DNA from: a virus
Taxonomy: Duplodnaviria > Heunggongvirae > Uroviricota > Caudoviricetes
Direction: 5' to 3' (one strand)
Virus record (IMG/VR): IMGVR_UViG_2534682252_000027
Span: 1-5,329 of that record
Length of the DNA stretch: 5,329 nucleotides
Below are positions 1 to 5,329 of the stretch, one piece after another. Position 1 is the first letter of the stretch, and every line of letters starts with the position of its first letter. Below the pieces are notes generated by a model. That model saw only the letters and a list, made by a program, of their open reading frames with translations, was not told the origin of the DNA and made no database searches. Both the position numbers and the translations under genes were made by a program.

Positions 1-200
1 GCCTTACGCCGGTCTTCTTTAATCTTGAAATACAGGTTCGTCAGATATGTCAGCAGCCCAAACAGCAGACTCCCCAGCACGCCTATTGCCGCCCACTGAG
101 ACGGGGAAACCCTGTCCAGCAACTGCAGGAACCAGTAGCCCGTTCCCACCGCTGACGTGGTGTATGACACACCTGTTGTGATTTTTTCCATCTGGTACAT
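1..200 (-). CDS. S: Class II holin (pinholin) S, S21/933W-like; start present, 3' end runs off the window
   Basis: Minus-strand translation from ATG at 198-200 gives [66 protein letters not shown]..., with two hydrophobic segments and the [13 protein letters not shown] motif I recall from phage 21 S21 / 933W S. Second in-frame ATG at 189-191 (dual-start pattern). GGAG Shine-Dalgarno in GGGAGACGGGGT just upstream. The track ORF 19..216 is a different frame of the same DNA. Confidence 0.85.
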
Positions 201-234
201 ACCCCGTCTCCCGCAATCCGGAAGCTCACAACAT

Positions 235-265
235 GAAAAAGGCCAGCAGCTGTTTACTGATGGCC
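235..265 (-). terminator. Putative intrinsic terminator between the 90-aa ORF and the holin gene
   Basis: Minus-strand RNA GGCCAUCAG-UAAACAG-CUGCUGGCC (9-bp stem with one mismatch, 7-nt loop) followed by UUUUUC. On the plus strand the same hairpin has no downstream T-run. Confidence 0.45.
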
Positions 266-276
266 CTGACTCCCCG

Positions 277-549
277 TTACAGCATCATGACCGATTCGGG
301 TTGAGGTTCAGTCGCATCGGCGACCGGTGATTCAGGCTGAACTTCACCGCTCTCTGCGGTGGTATCTCCCGCTTCAGTCGGTGGCTCTGCCTGTACACCA
401 AGCAGTTCATCCAGAATGGCATCCACTTCTGCATCAAGACGCGCTTCCAGGTTATGGCGAAGTTTCTGTTTCAGTGCGCTCCGGACTTCTTCAGAGCGCA
501 GGACGTCCTTCACTGCCTCTGCAGTGACCAGGGATGTAATTTCTGACAT
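277..549 (-). CDS. Hypothetical 90-aa acidic protein ([30 protein letters not shown]..., Glu/Asp/Pro-rich C-terminus)
   Basis: ATG at 547-549, stop TAA at 277-279. Protein-like composition with a predicted amphipathic helical N-terminal half and an acidic tail, and E. coli-like codon choice (CTG, GAA). The track's longer 148-aa version (GTG at 721-723) adds an Arg/Pro/Ser/Gly-rich N-terminus that looks like out-of-frame translation. Only a weak SD (GAGAAAA). Confidence 0.5.
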
Positions 550-589
550 GGGATTTTCTCGTCGAAAGGTGTGATTAAGAAAGTTGCCG

Positions 590-769
590 CTAAATGAGCG
601 GCTCTTCGGGTTTGCTTCCGGCTGACTGACTGGCGCTGATTTTCTCAGCGGCCCTTTTGTCAATCTGTCTGCGCCAGAAGTCACGCATGGCCCTGTACCC
701 ACCCGAAAGGAGATACAGCACACAGACCACCGTACAGAAGTACAGCATTAACTGGTTCAGAAATGTCAT
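590..769 (-). CDS. Hypothetical 59-aa small membrane protein (MTFLNQLMLYFCTVVCVLYLLSGGYRAMRDFWRRQIDKRAAEKISASQSAGSKPEEPLI)
   Basis: ATG at 767-769 preceded by GGAAAG (ACGGAAAGAAATTATG); stop TAG at 590-592. One hydrophobic helix followed by a basic then acidic tail. Below the 60-aa cutoff of the ORF track, so found by hand translation. It overlaps the implausible N-terminal extension of ORF 277..723 in another frame. Confidence 0.4.
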   Translation of the reverse strand: MTFLNQLMLYFCTVVCVLYLLSGGYRAMRDFWRRQIDKRAAEKISASQSAGSKPEEPLI

Positions 770-866
770 AATTTCTTTCCGTTATTGTTGACAATAAGAA
801 CTGTTTTCATTAAAAACCAGAGTACGAAAGTATCGTTCCTTTATTTTTTCTCCATAGGTATCACCA

Positions 867-902
867 CCGCCAGCGTCCATTCCTGTCGCTGGCGGTTTTT
901 TT
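867..902 (+). terminator. Strong plus-strand rho-independent terminator abutting the nanS-p stop codon
   Basis: CCGCCAGCG (867-875) / loop tccattcctgt / CGCTGGCGG (887-895), a 9-bp GC-rich stem followed by seven T (896-902). On the minus strand the hairpin is preceded by A7 and followed by UGGUGAUACC, so it is not a good minus-strand terminator. Confidence 0.55.
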
Positions 903-903
903 A

Positions 904-2841
904 TCATGCCGCAGTGTCTGTGCTGTTCACTTCCACCGCAATGCTGTCTATCAGTACCGGGTAAGTCGCACCTCTGGTAATGTCTGTCACATGCAGTTTA
1001 TCCGCCGCAAAGGCACTGACCGGTGACTGCGTCAGCGTGAACGGTGTGCCATCCTGACCATCAATAACCGGCGTCACCTGCAGGCTGTTATTCCCGGCAA
1101 AGCGGAAAGCCAGCGTATGCCATTCGTTATCAAATGCGCCAAAGGTTCCCAGTTTCAGGTTGTTTGTCGCCACTTTCGCATTGTGGTACATCACATTCAG
1201 GTCTTTTGCATCTGTCTGGATGTAGAACGCTGCCAGCAGGTTATTCCCCCCGTCTCCGGTCAGGGCAACGCCCTGTGGCAGTGAAGATACCGGCCAGTAA
1301 AACGCCATAACATACTGGTTCGCAGCCAGCGCTCCCGAAACCTTAAAGCGGCAGCGAATCTGCCCCCCTTTCTGTAACAGAGCCGCACCGTTGCCCGCGG
1401 CGTACTCCAGCACCCAGCTGCTTTTACCGGCTTCCTTGGTCAGCTTCACTGCCTTACCTCCGGTTCCCTCCGCATCGCTGACCACTTCTGCCCTGCCGCC
1501 ACTGGCTGACCATCCCTGTACTTTCAGGCTTCCCTCTGACTCGCTGGCAAGGTAAGAGAGCAGTGTTGTGACGCCTGTGGCTTCTGCACCGGAAGGCGAT
1601 GACGGGCGCACCTCTGATACTGTCGATGATGCCCCCGCGTTTAGCGCCACTCTTCCCGCATGGCGCAAAATCGCCGTTGCCAGACGGTCGGAAATAATCC
1701 CGCGGCGAGCCCATGAACTGAAATGGCTCGCCCTGTCCTGTGACGTCCAGGTGGCTGAGCTGTCACGCCATTTCGAACCGTAATATCCGATACCCGGAAT
1801 GTCCGGGTCTTCTTCCGGTTTGTTCGTCGGCACATTCACCCCGTTCTCATCCGTCATGAACGGTACGAAATGGATATTCTTTTCCGTTTTGTTTTTATAG
1901 CTGCCATACACCGTCTGGTACGTGGATTCGTTCTTCTGCTTCCAGAAATACGTCGTGTCCCCGCATATCCAGGGAACACCGCCAGCAGAGCCACCGACGC
2001 ACTGGCCTGCCATATCCGCCAGGTCTGCACGGAATTTATCAACCAGCGCACCAAACTGTGCGGCGTGATTTACCGGCGTACCGCCAAAATCAAATTCCCC
2101 CTGCATCCACACCACGGCAAACAGCACATTTTTCGGATTCTTCTTCAGTGCTGCTTTTGTTCGACCGATAAGGTCCTTATACAGCGGCTTGTCCACACCC
2201 CAGCGGGTTGAATTCTCCGAGGCACCACTCGCGTCACTGTATGTGCCATCGGCTCCGGTGGTGAACGCTGAACCACCACGACAGCACGGAACCAGCAGAA
2301 TGCCCGCATTCGCCGGTATAAACGGCAGCAGTTTTTTGGCGATATGCAGCCCTTGCCCCACGGTTCCGTACTGCCCCTTTGACAGGTCCGCTTTCGGATG
2401 GTTAAGGCGGCTCATGTCCTGCACATCATGCAGACAATGGTCCGCCGGAATGATGTCGTTATATTTACAGGCGACACCGCCCGGTGTCACCGTACTGCGA
2501 CGCGCTAACTGTTTAATACGTGGATCAGGGCTGTCGAATGTATCCGGCAATGGCAGTCCCTCACCGTATGACATACCATTGGACTGACCAGCAAGCGCGA
2601 TCACATAGTAATATTCTGGCGCAACAGAAGGCGCTGAGGTCGTCGGACGGTTGCCTGGCTCCTCTGGTGATGAGATGCTCCCCTCACTCACAACTGGCTG
2701 GATGAACTCCGCACCATAACCAGCTGTCGAAATCAGCGCACTACCATAAGGCTGCCACCCTTCCTTCAGTTTTTGAGTTATTCGTTTCGCAAGGTCTGAC
2801 GGCGACGCCGCCCTGACAACATCATAGTGTTTAAATGCCAT
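904..2841 (-). CDS. nanS: Prophage-encoded sialate (9-O-acetyl-N-acetylneuraminic acid) O-acetylesterase, NanS-p type; N-terminal DUF1737-like region + SASA/SGNH esterase domain + C-terminal domain
   Basis: 645-aa ORF with ATG at 2839-2841 preceded by GGGAGGA; double stop TGATAA. N-terminus MAFKHYDVVRAASPSDLAKRITQKLKEGWQPYG and esterase motif YYYVIALAGQSNGMSYG (catalytic Ser in GQSN) match my recollection of the 645-aa NanS-p proteins found downstream of stx in Stx phages such as 933W. Position upstream of the lysis cassette is the same. Confidence 0.9.
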   Translation of the reverse strand: MAFKHYDVVRAASPSDLAKRITQKLKEGWQPYGSALISTAGYGAEFIQPVVSEGSISSPEEPGNRPTTSAPSVAPEYYYVIALAGQSNGMSYGEGLPLPDTFDSPDPRIKQLARRSTVTPGGVACKYNDIIPADHCLHDVQDMSRLNHPKADLSKGQYGTVGQGLHIAKKLLPFIPANAGILLVPCCRGGSAFTTGADGTYSDASGASENSTRWGVDKPLYKDLIGRTKAALKKNPKNVLFAVVWMQGEFDFGGTPVNHAAQFGALVDKFRADLADMAGQCVGGSAGGVPWICGDTTYFWKQKNESTYQTVYGSYKNKTEKNIHFVPFMTDENGVNVPTNKPEEDPDIPGIGYYGSKWRDSSATWTSQDRASHFSSWARRGIISDRLATAILRHAGRVALNAGASSTVSEVRPSSPSGAEATGVTTLLSYLASESEGSLKVQGWSASGGRAEVVSDAEGTGGKAVKLTKEAGKSSWVLEYAAGNGAALLQKGGQIRCRFKVSGALAANQYVMAFYWPVSSLPQGVALTGDGGNNLLAAFYIQTDAKDLNVMYHNAKVATNNLKLGTFGAFDNEWHTLAFRFAGNNSLQVTPVIDGQDGTPFTLTQSPVSAFAADKLHVTDITRGATYPVLIDSIAVEVNSTDTAA

Positions 2842-3034
2842 GAATCCTCCCGGCCGGGATAATATTGTGAGTAAAATAAGGAGCGGGCTGAAGTCCGGAA
2901 GTTACAGGACAATGGCAGAAGGGAGACTACAGCCCGCAATTCGAAAAAGGTCGCGCAGTTGCGCAGAGTGATTACTATAGGGTATTATTCGCCAGCTGAA
3001 ATATTACTTCACGTTTCATTGTTTATTCCTTGCC

Positions 3035-3062
3035 GCCCGCGTCTCCCAGCGCGGGCTTTTTT
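3035..3062 (+). terminator. Plus-strand rho-independent terminator
   Basis: GCCCGCG (3035-3041) / loop tctcccag / CGCGGGC (3050-3056), a 7-bp all-GC stem followed by TTTTTT (3057-3062). No U-run follows it on the minus strand. Confidence 0.55.
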
Positions 3063-3066
3063 GTCC

Positions 3067-3093
3067 ATAAGAAAGCCCCTCCGGAGAGGGGCT
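3067..3093 (-). terminator. Minus-strand intrinsic terminator, convergent with the 3035-3062 terminator
   Basis: Minus-strand RNA AGCCCCUC-UCCG-GAGGGGCU (8-bp stem, 4-nt loop; plus coordinates 3074-3093) followed by UUCUUAU (3067-3073). Confidence 0.45.
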
Positions 3094-3510
3094 GGAGAGT
3101 GGCGCTATGTGCCATTGCATGGTGCCGGGTGCCTCCCGGTGAATTCAGTATCAGCACCTGAATCCGCGATTATCACATATACCTGGTTGCTGATTGCCCC
3201 TCCGCACAGGGGGATTCACCATGCAGTAGTATTTTTAATAAACAGTAAACAAAAAAATCAAGCATTATGCAGGCTGTTTCTTTTTATCACCGGCCACAGC
3301 AATACCACAATGCCGCAGACCAGAGCGCCATCAGTCAGTACCAACATTATCCTGCTGGTGAAATCCATCATCACCATCACTAAAAGCAGGATCACAACAG
3401 CAAGCAGACACAGTTTATAAAACAATGTTCAGAAAACGCATTCAGCATGCCTAAGGTTCTATTCCTACGAATAGCCAACTTGCAACTTAAAATATTATTT
3501 ATGCAGCCAA

Positions 3511-4269
3511 TTAAATTCTGGTCCTTACAATATCAACCTGAAGATTCTTATCTTGTGCTGATTGATAAATCACAAACCTTTTACTACCTGCATTGAAAGA
3601 AGTAGACAAAACCAGACAATTATCATAACGAGCAAGAACATAATACCAACCATCATTATAATTAATCATTTCATATTCTTTCTTAAACTGTGGTTTGTAA
3701 TATCCTGTCAGAAATGAAAAAAGCCAGAAATATGCCACAAAAGCAATCATCACAATCTCAAAAAAATGCTTTTTTATAAATGGCTTATCATAGAAGCATG
3801 ATACCGATAAAAATCGCCCATAAGATCTTATCGAAGTTGTAACCGCCAGCGCAATCGCTGCTGACAGTAGCAAAAGAGGTACCTGAATCTTCTGTCTCAA
3901 TATAGAAAACTCAATAATTGCCGGCACAAACAATAATTCCACAGCAAAATAAAGGCGAAATACATTTAGCTCTTGCATAGAATGTTTTCTTTTCACTGCG
4001 AAAAAGAATACAACACCAATACCCCAACCGATAAGAAATATAGCAATGACGATAACTGCAAAAAATAAACTTCTGGCAACATCATCAACACCTGCACCTA
4101 CAATCCACCATGGGAAGCCGTAGTAAAAAGAAGTACCCCATCCATAGAAATAAGCACTCCCCCATCCAAGGCATCCCATGTAGGCAATAAAAAGTGAAGA
4201 ACTCCTGAGCAGCGCACCATCCTTCATAACCACCCCAATACAAGATGATAACATTGGCTTACAACTCAT
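3511..4269 (-). CDS. Hypothetical AT-rich polytopic inner-membrane protein (~5 predicted TM helices + ~60-aa hydrophilic C-terminal tail); family not recognised; cargo (moron) gene in the Q-to-lysis slot
   Basis: Longest ORF is 252 aa from ATG 4267-4269, which has no SD. The in-frame ATG at 4225-4227 (Met15) follows GGGGTGG and is the more likely start (238 aa). Hydrophobic stretches: LFIAYMGCLGWG, LFFAVIVIAIFLIGWGIGVVFFFAV, VFRLYFAVELLFVPAIIEFSIL, VPLLLLSAAIALAVTTSI, FFEIVMIAFVAYFWLFSFLTG. Hand-counted 60-nt samples are about 32-33% G+C, against about 47-65% in nanS-p samples. It lies immediately downstream of the lambda-like late promoter. Confidence 0.75.
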   Translation of the reverse strand: MSCKPMLSSCIGVVMKDGALLRSSSLFIAYMGCLGWGSAYFYGWGTSFYYGFPWWIVGAGVDDVARSLFFAVIVIAIFLIGWGIGVVFFFAVKRKHSMQELNVFRLYFAVELLFVPAIIEFSILRQKIQVPLLLLSAAIALAVTTSIRSYGRFLSVSCFYDKPFIKKHFFEIVMIAFVAYFWLFSFLTGYYKPQFKKEYEMINYNDGWYYVLARYDNCLVLSTSFNAGSKRFVIYQSAQDKNLQVDIVRTRI

Positions 4270-4429
4270 AACAAAAGCAATTCAATGCCGTCAAGAGGTT
4301 ACAGGCTAAAAAAACTCTATTACATTGCAGTCAGCATGTTTACTACACAAATACAATTCAGAGCATAAAAACTACTCGGCGGCAGGTTATTGAGACTCAT
4401 CAATGACATGTAAAAAACGCCCATTATTG

Positions 4430-4470
4430 GTGTCAAGTTTCCCCAAAGTTATTCAAAAAGTCAATATTAT
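4430..4470 (-). promoter_or_regulatory. Lambda-like late promoter pR' with presumed Q-utilisation (qut) region
   Basis: Minus strand TTGACT (4459-4464) - 17 bp TTTTGAATAACTTTGGG - GAAACT (4436-4441) - TGACACCAATAATGGG. This aligns with lambda pR' as I recall it (TTGACT TATTGAATAAAATTGGG TAAATT TGACTCAACGATGGG). It sits about 45 bp after the Q stop, as in lambda. The -10 hexamer is diverged. Confidence 0.5.
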
Positions 4471-4506
4471 GCCGTTAATATGTTGCCATCCGTGGCAATC
4501 ATGGCG

Positions 4507-5130
4507 CTAACGTGTGATCGCATTCAAAATGTTGTCTGCGATTGACTCTTCCTTGTGGCATTGCACAACCAGAGCGTCATACAGCGGCTTAACAGTGCGT
4601 GACCAGGTGGGTTGGGTAAGGTTTGGGATTAGCATCGTCACAGCGCGATATGCGGCGCTTGCTGGCATTCTTGAATAACCGACGCCTTTACATCTTCCGC
4701 ACTCTTTCTCAGCAACTATCCCCCACTGCTCTGTTTTGGCTATATCAACCGCACGGCCTGTACCGTGGCAATCTCTGCATCTTGCGCCCGGCGTAGCGGC
4801 ACTACGGCAATAATCCGCATAAGCGAATGTTGCGAGCACTTGCAGTACCTTTGCCTTAGTATTTCCTTCAAGCTTTGCCACGCCACGGTATTTCCCCGAT
4901 ACCTTGTGTGCAAATTGCATCAGATAGTTGATAGCCTTTTGTTTGTCGTTCTGGCTTAGTTCATGCTTACCGCAGAATGCAGCCATTCCGAATCCGGCTT
5001 GTGATTGCGCCATCCCCATAGCAGCCATCACATCAGTACCGGAAAGAGAGTCAGAAGCCGTGGCCCGTGGTGAGTCGCTCATCATCGGGCTTTTTGGCGA
5101 ATGAAATTTAGCTACGCTTTCGAGTCTCAT
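4507..5130 (-). CDS. Q: Late-gene antitermination protein Q (lambda-type)
   Basis: 207 aa, [44 protein letters not shown]...[12 protein letters not shown]...[21 protein letters not shown]...[13 protein letters not shown]. Near-identical over its full length to lambda Q as I recall it, including the Cys-rich zinc-binding motifs. ATG at 5128-5130, stop TAG at 4507-4509. Confidence 0.93.
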
Positions 5131-5329
5131 GCGCCTTCTCCCTGTACCTGAATCAATGTGAGGTTTCCGCAGAACACTGCGCCGGTATCTATATACATCT
5201 GGTTGGCAAATTTGAGTGGTTTCACTGCTGGCGTATGACCAAAGATGAACGTGTCCGCGCCTTTGATTTCTTTCACGATCCCGTCTTGTGAGTTGCTGAT
5301 TCGTTCGCGGTTCCAGATTACCTGCTGAT
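5127..5329 (-). CDS. ninI: Ser/Thr protein phosphatase, lambda NinI (orf221)-like; C-terminal fragment, 5' end outside the window
   Basis: Minus-strand frame ending at TGA 5127-5129 translates to ...[66 protein letters not shown]. The GHTP motif and the position immediately upstream of Q match the lambda nin region. Its stop overlaps the Q start in ATGA. Confidence 0.8.

Follow-up and report, generated by a model that had tools for sequence, protein, structure and literature searches.

In the textbook Q switch a terminator stands directly after a promoter described as constitutive, and the genes downstream, including those of the Stx toxins, stay silent until Q is available. The late promoter pR' of phage lambda has been assigned as TTGACT-tattgaataaaattggg-TAAATT-tgactc-A(+1) (PMC4604602). 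The -10-like pause element AACGAT occupies positions +1 to +6 of the transcript and is followed by GGG, a discriminator-like sequence, and by a pause at +16 (PMC4005639). pR' has been described as constitutively active in lambda and is predicted to be so in Stx phages, and its terminated product is the 6S RNA in lambda and StxS in Stx phages (PMC7547250).

Here, we describe a late control region of the lambda type in a viral stretch of DNA of 5,329 nt (the window), the relevant genes of which all lie on the minus strand. In the order of transcription these are:

before Q, minus strand: NinI-type phosphatase gene, end only, first in transcription order
4507..5130, minus strand: Q antiterminator gene of the lambda family, 207 aa (Pfam PF03589, E 1.2e-57)
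4270-4506, minus strand: intergenic region between the Q gene and the cargo ORF, with pR' and the leader
3511..4269, minus strand: cargo ORF, membrane protein of unknown function, 252 aa as read (phrog_1521, phrog_14371)
3258..3425, minus strand: second cargo ORF, DUF3927/TciB-like, 55 aa (PF13064, E 1.4e-13; phrog_1470, TciB-like moron)
904..2841, minus strand: NanS-p-like SASA/DUF6645 esterase gene, 645 aa (Pfam DUF6645, DUF1737, SASA)
3' of the esterase gene, minus strand: DUF1378 gene, DUF826 gene and start of the holin gene

As a whole, the window (1-5329) is a mosaic of differently related segments. Positions 1-3148 share 99.7% identity with the esterase/lysis module of O111:H8 prophages and of phages such as phi296, positions 4200-4560 have a 100% identical counterpart in an O157:H7 prophage, and at most 63% of the window is found in one place in any complete E. 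coli genome or phage record searched.

The Q protein is identical to lambda Q in 203 of 207 residues (98%), and its stop codon at 4507 lies 43 nt upstream of the pR' -35 hexamer. Three arm-tip residues (135, 138, 140) differ from lambda Q. Across the loci L003-L191 the arm tip (codons 135-140, window 4705-4729, adjoining E134) is a small polymorphic patch, in which the variants QWGIVA, QWGRVV, LWGRVV, LWGRVA and QLGRVA were seen, mixing freely with different pR' alleles. A co-variation of these residues with an altered qut can be dismissed, as QWGIVA, QWGRVV, LWGRVV and LWGRVA all occur with the GAAACT promoter described below. Since arm-tip variants and promoter variants pair freely, nothing points to a specially adapted Q.

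In a blastn comparison with lambda (NC_001416), window positions 5216-4432, which span Q and pR', correspond to lambda 43800-44584 with 96% identity over 785 nt, and no match is found past window position 4432. A preceding sequence-only reading of the window had recognized a likeness to lambda pR' in the -35 hexamer, the spacer and the block downstream, and had read the -10 hexamer as GAAACT rather than TAAATT. The similarity to lambda pR' is indeed significant, the elements are in register, and the hexamer GAAACT is found at 4441-4436. The elements of the promoter are:

4459..4464, minus strand: pR' -35 hexamer TTGACT, identical to lambda and in register
4442..4458, minus strand: 17-nt spacer TTTTGAATAACTTTGGG, expected from the lambda alignment to carry the Q binding element
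4436..4441, minus strand: pR' -10 hexamer GAAACT, placed by the lambda alignment
4431..4436, minus strand: -35-like element TTGACA, just upstream of the pause element
4423..4428, minus strand: sigma-dependent pause element AATAAT, aligned with lambda AACGAT at +1 to +6
4420..4422, minus strand: GGG, directly after the pause element, as in lambda

Read in succession, the promoter consists of TTGACT, TTTTGAATAACTTTGGG, GAAACT, TGACACC, AATAAT and GGG. Judged from this sequence, it is a lambda-type late promoter with a putative Q-loading site and an intact architecture, and transcription is predicted to start at about 4428. The lambda-family Q gene, the pR'-homologous sigma-70 promoter and the pause element with GGG, which together mark a lambda-type Q cassette, are all present, and so are late genes downstream, namely those for the esterase, DUF1378, DUF826 and the holin; no intrinsic terminator stands between the promoter and the gene that follows it. 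The -10 hexamer agrees with the consensus at three of six positions, compared with four of six for TAAATT of lambda. With its G at -12 and these three matches the basal activity of pR' may therefore be low. A consensus promoter scan leaves this pR' below threshold and uncalled, and pR' keeps the -35 hexamer, -11A and -7T.

The spacer differs from that of lambda (TATTGAATAAAATTGGG) by three substitutions, and the form that contains the predicted Q binding element is TTTTGAATAACTTTGGGG. This element shows four differences from lambda, including the base at -12 in the -10 hexamer. Every lambda-Q locus sampled has TTGAATAA and TGGG unchanged, and three central spacer positions vary. Reported Q contacts at positions 1-4 and 11-13 of a 13-bp site would fit this pattern of invariant flanks and a variable centre. 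Further differences concern the pause region: the -35-like element, TTGACA in the window and TTGACT in lambda, is separated from the pause element by 2 bp instead of the 1 bp of lambda, a spacing also present in one HK97-type locus (L175), and AATAAT is nearer to the consensus than AACGAT of lambda.

Between 4428 and the ATG at 4269 the leader measures 159 nt, in accordance with the approximately 160 nt given before, and the three U-runs that had been described in it, U6, U5 and U7, are all present. It is composed as follows:

4389..4419, minus strand: junction segment of 31 nt, including the U6 run 4412-4417, which aligns with neither lambda nor 434
4417-4412, minus strand: U6 run, at about +12 to +17
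4367..4388, minus strand: decayed 434/Q82-type promoter-proximal terminator, AACCTGCCGCCGAGTAG-TTTTT, homologous to the 434 terminator
4371-4367, minus strand: U5 run, the middle U-run, GAGUAGUUUUUAUG
4270..4366, minus strand: remainder of the 434-type leader, including the U7 run (local alignment to the 434 leader, score 92)
4314-4308, minus strand: U7 run

In the transcript, homology to lambda extends to about +9. The sequence from 4388 onward has its homologue in the phage 434 late leader, part of a cassette with a Q82-type Q, and shares 90-100% identity with it. In a megablast search against phage genomes, phage 434 (OL657226) matched window 4371-3400 with 98.8% identity, and phage Lambda_2B8 matched window 4520-3400 with 98.5% identity; the only matching record of phage 82 (X92588) ends at the Q stop codon. 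According to these alignments, a lambda-type Q/pR' cassette is joined, a few bases past the pause element, to a 434/Q82-type late leader.

The sequence-only reading had proposed another origin, namely the lambda 6S RNA region, with a tR' that might be weak or rearranged. Such a leader, in which tR' would have been split by insertions, is very improbable. The words GTAATAG and AGCCTG, on which the likeness was based, do stand in the same order in the lambda tR' loop and in window 4321-4302, but they occur in the leader of phage 434 as well. When the leader was aligned locally with lambda 44596-44790, the top score was 11; shuffled sequences averaged 9.6 (sd 1.5), and 457 of 2000 attained this score, which places the alignment at chance level. 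Neither homology to lambda 44596-44780 nor a long tR' hairpin, as expected of a member of the lambda 6S/tR' group, is found in the leader, and no Rfam family matches the leader itself. The resemblance to 6S RNA thus comes down to short common words, and the leader is homologous to the phage 434 late leader, which follows a Q82-type Q, instead.

Two smaller features of the leader were also noted. An ORF of 34 codons at 4320-4424 (minus strand) starts at an ATG in the pause element (AATAATGGG) and reads MGVFYMSLMSLNNLPPSSFYALNCICVVNMLTAM. It lacks a ribosome-binding site, and roughly every second substitution in the sister allele is synonymous, so that a gene is improbable here. At 4280-4294 (minus strand), TTGACGGCATTGAAT resembles the pR' -35 hexamer plus the start of the Q-binding spacer, with TTGAC-N4-TTGAAT compared with TTGAC-N3-TTGAAT in pR' and 0.01 such boxes expected per window by chance. 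We give this second pR'-like box (4294-4280) no weight, because its spacing is one off, it was noticed post hoc and no acceptable -10 hexamer follows.

The homology of the leader to phage 434 begins at the annotated 434 terminator (42034-42059, AACCCGCTGCCGAGTGGGTTTTTTTT), and therefore the middle U-run is the relic of a 434/Q82-type terminator. In the alignment, AACCCGCTGCCGAGTGGGTTTTTTTTATGC of 434 stands opposite AACCTGCCGCCGAGTAG----TTTTTATGC of the window. Relative to the intact 434 hairpin (AAACCCGCTGCCGAGTGGGTTTTTTTT), the relic carries three substitutions, all of them in the stem, and a 4-nt deletion, and its U-tract is a U5 instead of a U8. It folds with -2.2 kcal/mol (z -0.13), compared with -12.5 (z -3.5) for 434 and -26.4 for lambda tR'. 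Regarding the GC-rich stem and U-tract of a 434/Q82-type terminator, the position is homologous and the stem is lost, and thus no intrinsic terminator is left between pR' and the cargo. The hairpins before the three U-runs reach -1.7, -2.2 and -2.2 kcal/mol, all inside the shuffle range, so that the failure to fold a convincing GC-rich stem before any U-run, as reported from the sequence alone, is reproduced. The terminator scan finds no sense-strand site in 4428-4270, in line with the earlier claim that pR' feeds directly into the cargo gene.

The leader could nevertheless shut the cargo off without Q if the relic with its U5, the U6 at the pause position, the U7, or Rho acting on 159-200 nt of untranslated RNA jointly stopped most polymerases, and the locus would then be an ordinary pR'-tR' switch. 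Three U-runs do lie within 160 nt, the U6 coincides with the pause of lambda polymerase at +16 (PMC4005639), and with a cargo start at M15 (see below) the leader would be untranslated. However, all three hairpins are at shuffle level, the terminator scan is negative and the whole leader folds no better than its shuffles (MFE z -1.34). The obvious GC-rich terminators of lambda-, HK97- and 434-type leaders have no counterpart here. Moreover, with 25 C against 33 G in 159 nt and a C/G ratio below 1 in every 78-nt window, the leader is C-poor, unlike rut sites, and no rut-like tract is therefore apparent; accordingly, a Rho site in the leader was rejected. We consider a block of this kind improbable, although weak termination may occur, be it through Rho, at the relic or at the U6 in the expected pause position. 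A conserved leader structure was rejected too: the few natural variants give an ATTGA/TCAAT stem no support, and one allele breaks it.

The loss of the hairpin is not confined to the window. An IMG/VR scan for the cargo leader yielded 103 contigs, which were sorted together with reference loci into two classes, 65 loci with lambda-type Q, pR' and the decayed hairpin, and 41 loci with Q82-type Q and the intact 434-type hairpin. When each copy was folded, in a tally that counts some contigs more than once, all lambda-type records gave -2.2 and the Q82-type records -12.5, with one at -6.2, so that hairpin decay and Q type are perfectly associated. The 31-nt junction segment is confined in IMG/VR to the lambda-Q class with the decayed hairpin, and a scan of IMG/VR for this segment found no lambda-type copy with an intact hairpin; the extra matches to the 17-mer pattern in IMG/VR are unrelated sequences. 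Overall, lambda-Q loci carry at least four unrelated leaders, all branching from the conserved core just past ATGG. An obvious GC-rich terminator is part of both the lambda-type and the HK97-type leader, and the decayed-hairpin class is the exception. Within this class the -10 hexamer is polymorphic, with GAAACT dominant and TAAATT and TAAGTT also present, whereas all other lambda-Q loci sampled retain TAAATT. Since few lineages are involved, this restriction of the polymorphism to one class of sequences is only suggestive.

The arrangement is also frequent in bacterial genomes. Of 5426 complete E. coli genomes, 572 (about 10%) contain the 361-nt region at ≥80% coverage, and 558 records reach ≥99% identity. 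Among the matches listed, which are mostly from O157:H7, 17 full-length ones come from O157:H7, O145 and O111 strains and from strains without a given serotype. Phage Lambda_2B8 has an identical promoter and leader and is among the sequenced phages of a study in which temperate phages were plaque-purified from culture supernatants (PMC6969025). Therefore, a viable phage appears to use the decayed-hairpin arrangement. In Lambda_2B8 (L003 4053-6030) the esterase gene after the cargo is truncated and followed by a gene annotated as mobile element protein, and thus late transcription apparently has to pass this element.

With the promoter-proximal hairpin decayed, the next RNA features on the sense strand lie behind the second cargo ORF:

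3063..3250, minus strand: STnc100/PasD-family sRNA (Rfam RF02076, 140.3 bits against a gathering score of 47)
3093-3074, minus strand: first strong sense-strand terminator after pR' in the terminator scan (-22.6 kcal/mol, z -4.67)
2952..2965, minus strand: second, weaker terminator-like hairpin, before the esterase gene

The STnc100 match covers the full length of the model (positions 1-206 of 206) and lies directly 3' of the DUF3927 gene. STnc100 is related to the prophage sRNA PasD, which has been reported beside lambda-family Q genes (bioRxiv 10.64898/2026.05.13.724894). The hairpin 3093-3074, with the core GCCCCTCTCCGGAGGGGC, is the 3' terminator of the STnc100 match and separates the two cargo genes from the esterase and lysis genes. 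Its U-tract is interrupted (UUUCUUAU), and it is weaker than the O157 allele. The hairpin 2965-2952 is homologous to a stronger hairpin of the O157 copy (L004 7588-7609). The three contexts examined agree in that the first strong sense terminator comes after the DUF3927 gene and before the esterase gene, at 3093-3074 in the window, at L003 3940-3958 in 2B8 and at L004 7469-7490 in O157:H7. The esterase gene, annotated as NanS or SASA esterase in related phages, is the first gene past the terminators and is followed by the lysis module. Among the window, 2B8, O157 and 434, STnc100 follows DUF3927 only in the window and the O157 copy. The suggestion that tR' is weak or rearranged here, or lies elsewhere, hence holds in part, since the promoter-proximal hairpin has decayed and effective termination is predicted about 1.3 kb downstream (3093-3074), but the relic is that of 434 and not of lambda tR'.

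The surroundings of the sRNA deserve a short description. The first approximately 150 nt of STnc100 are identical to the O157:H7 copy, and divergence sets in from about 3112. On the plus strand, 3035-3056 is a strong terminator-like hairpin with a U6, convergent with the STnc100 terminator. At this position the O157:H7 copy encodes the antisense-strand sRNA AgvB (RF02702). Because the window sequence is different there and matches no Rfam family, an undescribed sRNA could occupy the AgvB position in the window. A weak match, over the full length of the EHEC sRNA Esr41, is found at 827-904 (plus strand; 28 bits, E 0.027, gathering score 102). Its end is a terminator-like hairpin with a U7 (883-895), between the esterase and DUF1378 genes. 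Esr41 has been reported near PasD loci, and 827-904 may be a diverged relative or a chance match.

For the cargo ORF no Pfam and no PADLOC match was obtained. Both phrog_1521 and phrog_14371 are of unknown function, the profile of phrog_14371 starts at residue 15, and the Lambda_2B8 annotation of the cargo begins at M15 as well. A start at M15 (4227) is likelier than one at the ATG at 4269. A search of the literature on tciB and phage 434 found nothing relevant. Close to the start of the ORF a candidate promoter of its own is located:

4245..4274, minus strand: candidate internal promoter TTGTTA-18-TG-TATCAT, a match in the consensus scan only (9/12 with TG)

The cargo might thus be expressed mainly from this site (4274-4245), with translation from M15, in which case the weakened pR' would add little in the lysogen and the loss of the hairpin would be neutral drift, tolerated because the downstream terminators still shield the lysis genes. 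The extended -10-like site is the sole promoter-like match near the ORF, is kept in the 434, 2B8 and O157 copies, and lies upstream of residue 15, where the PHROG profiles and the 2B8 annotation begin. As the same cargo stands behind an intact terminator in 434-type phages, its expression there should not depend on read-through, so that a promoter of its own may exist, and such a promoter would explain cargo expression in 434-type phages. Drift would also agree with a hairpin region that has diverged about as much as the flanking leader and has no compensatory changes, and with several -10 alleles in the decayed-hairpin class only. On the other hand, the region holds three promoter-like matches against a shuffle mean of 4.3, pR' has kept its -35, -11A and -7T, and the plaque-forming Lambda_2B8 presumably needs the identical pR' for its late genes. 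An internal promoter would, moreover, be compatible with read-through from pR'. Taken as the main source of cargo expression, it seems to us possible but rather doubtful.

Read-through from pR' is the explanation that we regard as probable, with moderate confidence. The locus would be a mosaic of a lambda-like Q and its cognate pR'/qut, joined to a 434/Q82-type leader that brought the two-gene moron, and the promoter-proximal terminator of the 434 module would have lost its stem in this lineage. RNA polymerase starting from pR' at about 4428 would pause at AATAAT and, without Q, read on through both cargo genes. It would then be stopped mainly at the strong hairpin 3093-3074, the STnc100/PasD-family terminator, and also at the weaker hairpin 2965-2952, and only Q-modified polymerase would reach the esterase and lysis genes. 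Cargo expression would thus be independent of Q, which would be needed only further downstream, and its level would be set by a -10 hexamer weaker than that of lambda. As the terminators are found only after the cargo, the working tR' would in effect be shifted downstream of it. Promoter activity, Q loading and read-through are in all these steps predictions from the arrangement of elements.

More tentatively, and as we think rather unlikely, the loss of the terminator might itself be functional. pR' would then constitutively make a lysogen transcript of about 1.35 kb in place of the 6S RNA, which would encode two conversion proteins. Its 3' end would be released as an Hfq-type STnc100/PasD RNA, the terminator of which would serve as the Q-controlled gate, that is the working tR', for the esterase and lysis genes. 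GAAACT would in this case be the tuning of a productive constitutive promoter.

The sequence is common and has been deposited many times, and all of its parts belong to known families. A literature search found no described natural lambda-Q cassette with a decayed proximal terminator and with cargo and an sRNA before the working terminator, and the locus appears to be a natural lambda-Q cassette without a proximal terminator, in which termination is regained only after a two-gene moron and an sRNA. If read-through takes place, a late-operon moron could in this simple way turn into a lysogenic-conversion gene with no need for a new promoter, and the terminator of an sRNA would become the gate for the lysis genes. 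The natural alleles (-10 hexamers GAAACT, TAAATT and TAAGTT; AATAAT; the 2-bp spacing) could then be used to probe the requirements for Q loading. If it does not, the locus is only another mosaic junction. For specialists in phage transcription it is a testable case and no surprise of principle.

Compared with the known systems, the window is closest to the Q-pR'-qut-tR' cassette of lambda in its upstream part. Both have nearly the same Q (98% identical), the same -35 hexamer, the same 17-bp spacer length and the same layout of -35-like element, -10-like pause element and GGG, with the promoter directly past the Q stop codon and late lysis genes downstream. The window differs from lambda in the -10 hexamer GAAACT, the three spacer substitutions, the AATAAT pause element and one extra base. 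Its transcript diverges wholly past about +9, forms neither the 194-nt 6S RNA nor a tR' hairpin, and has two cargo genes and an sRNA ahead of the first strong terminator. The HK97/HK022-type cassettes share the Q family and a nearly identical pR'/qut core and likewise diverge from lambda just past ATGG, but their leader is short and contains a clear GC-rich terminator (GCCCTGAG...CTCGGGGC-TTTTT), whereas the class of the window has none. With the 434B region of phage 434 the window has in common the leader from the terminator onward (about 90-100% identity), the cargo ORF, the DUF3927/TciB gene and the gene order with the SASA esterase next. In 434, however, Q and promoter are of the unrelated Q82 family, the cargo follows a Q82-like antiterminator gene, the terminator, the stem of which is destroyed in the window, is intact (-12.5 kcal/mol, U8), and no STnc100 match lies downstream. 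The pR'-StxS-tR' unit of Stx phages has a late promoter that is predicted to be constitutive, and its Q-independent transcript ends at an intrinsic terminator and gives rise to an Hfq-binding sRNA (PMC7547250). Stx phages and the window are alike in carrying a moron, stx in the former and membrane proteins in the latter, in the late operon before the esterase/lysis genes, and they differ in the Q family and in the sRNA family, which is STnc100/PasD in the window. In Stx phages the terminator precedes the toxin genes, and toxin production therefore depends on Q, whereas in the window the terminator follows the cargo.
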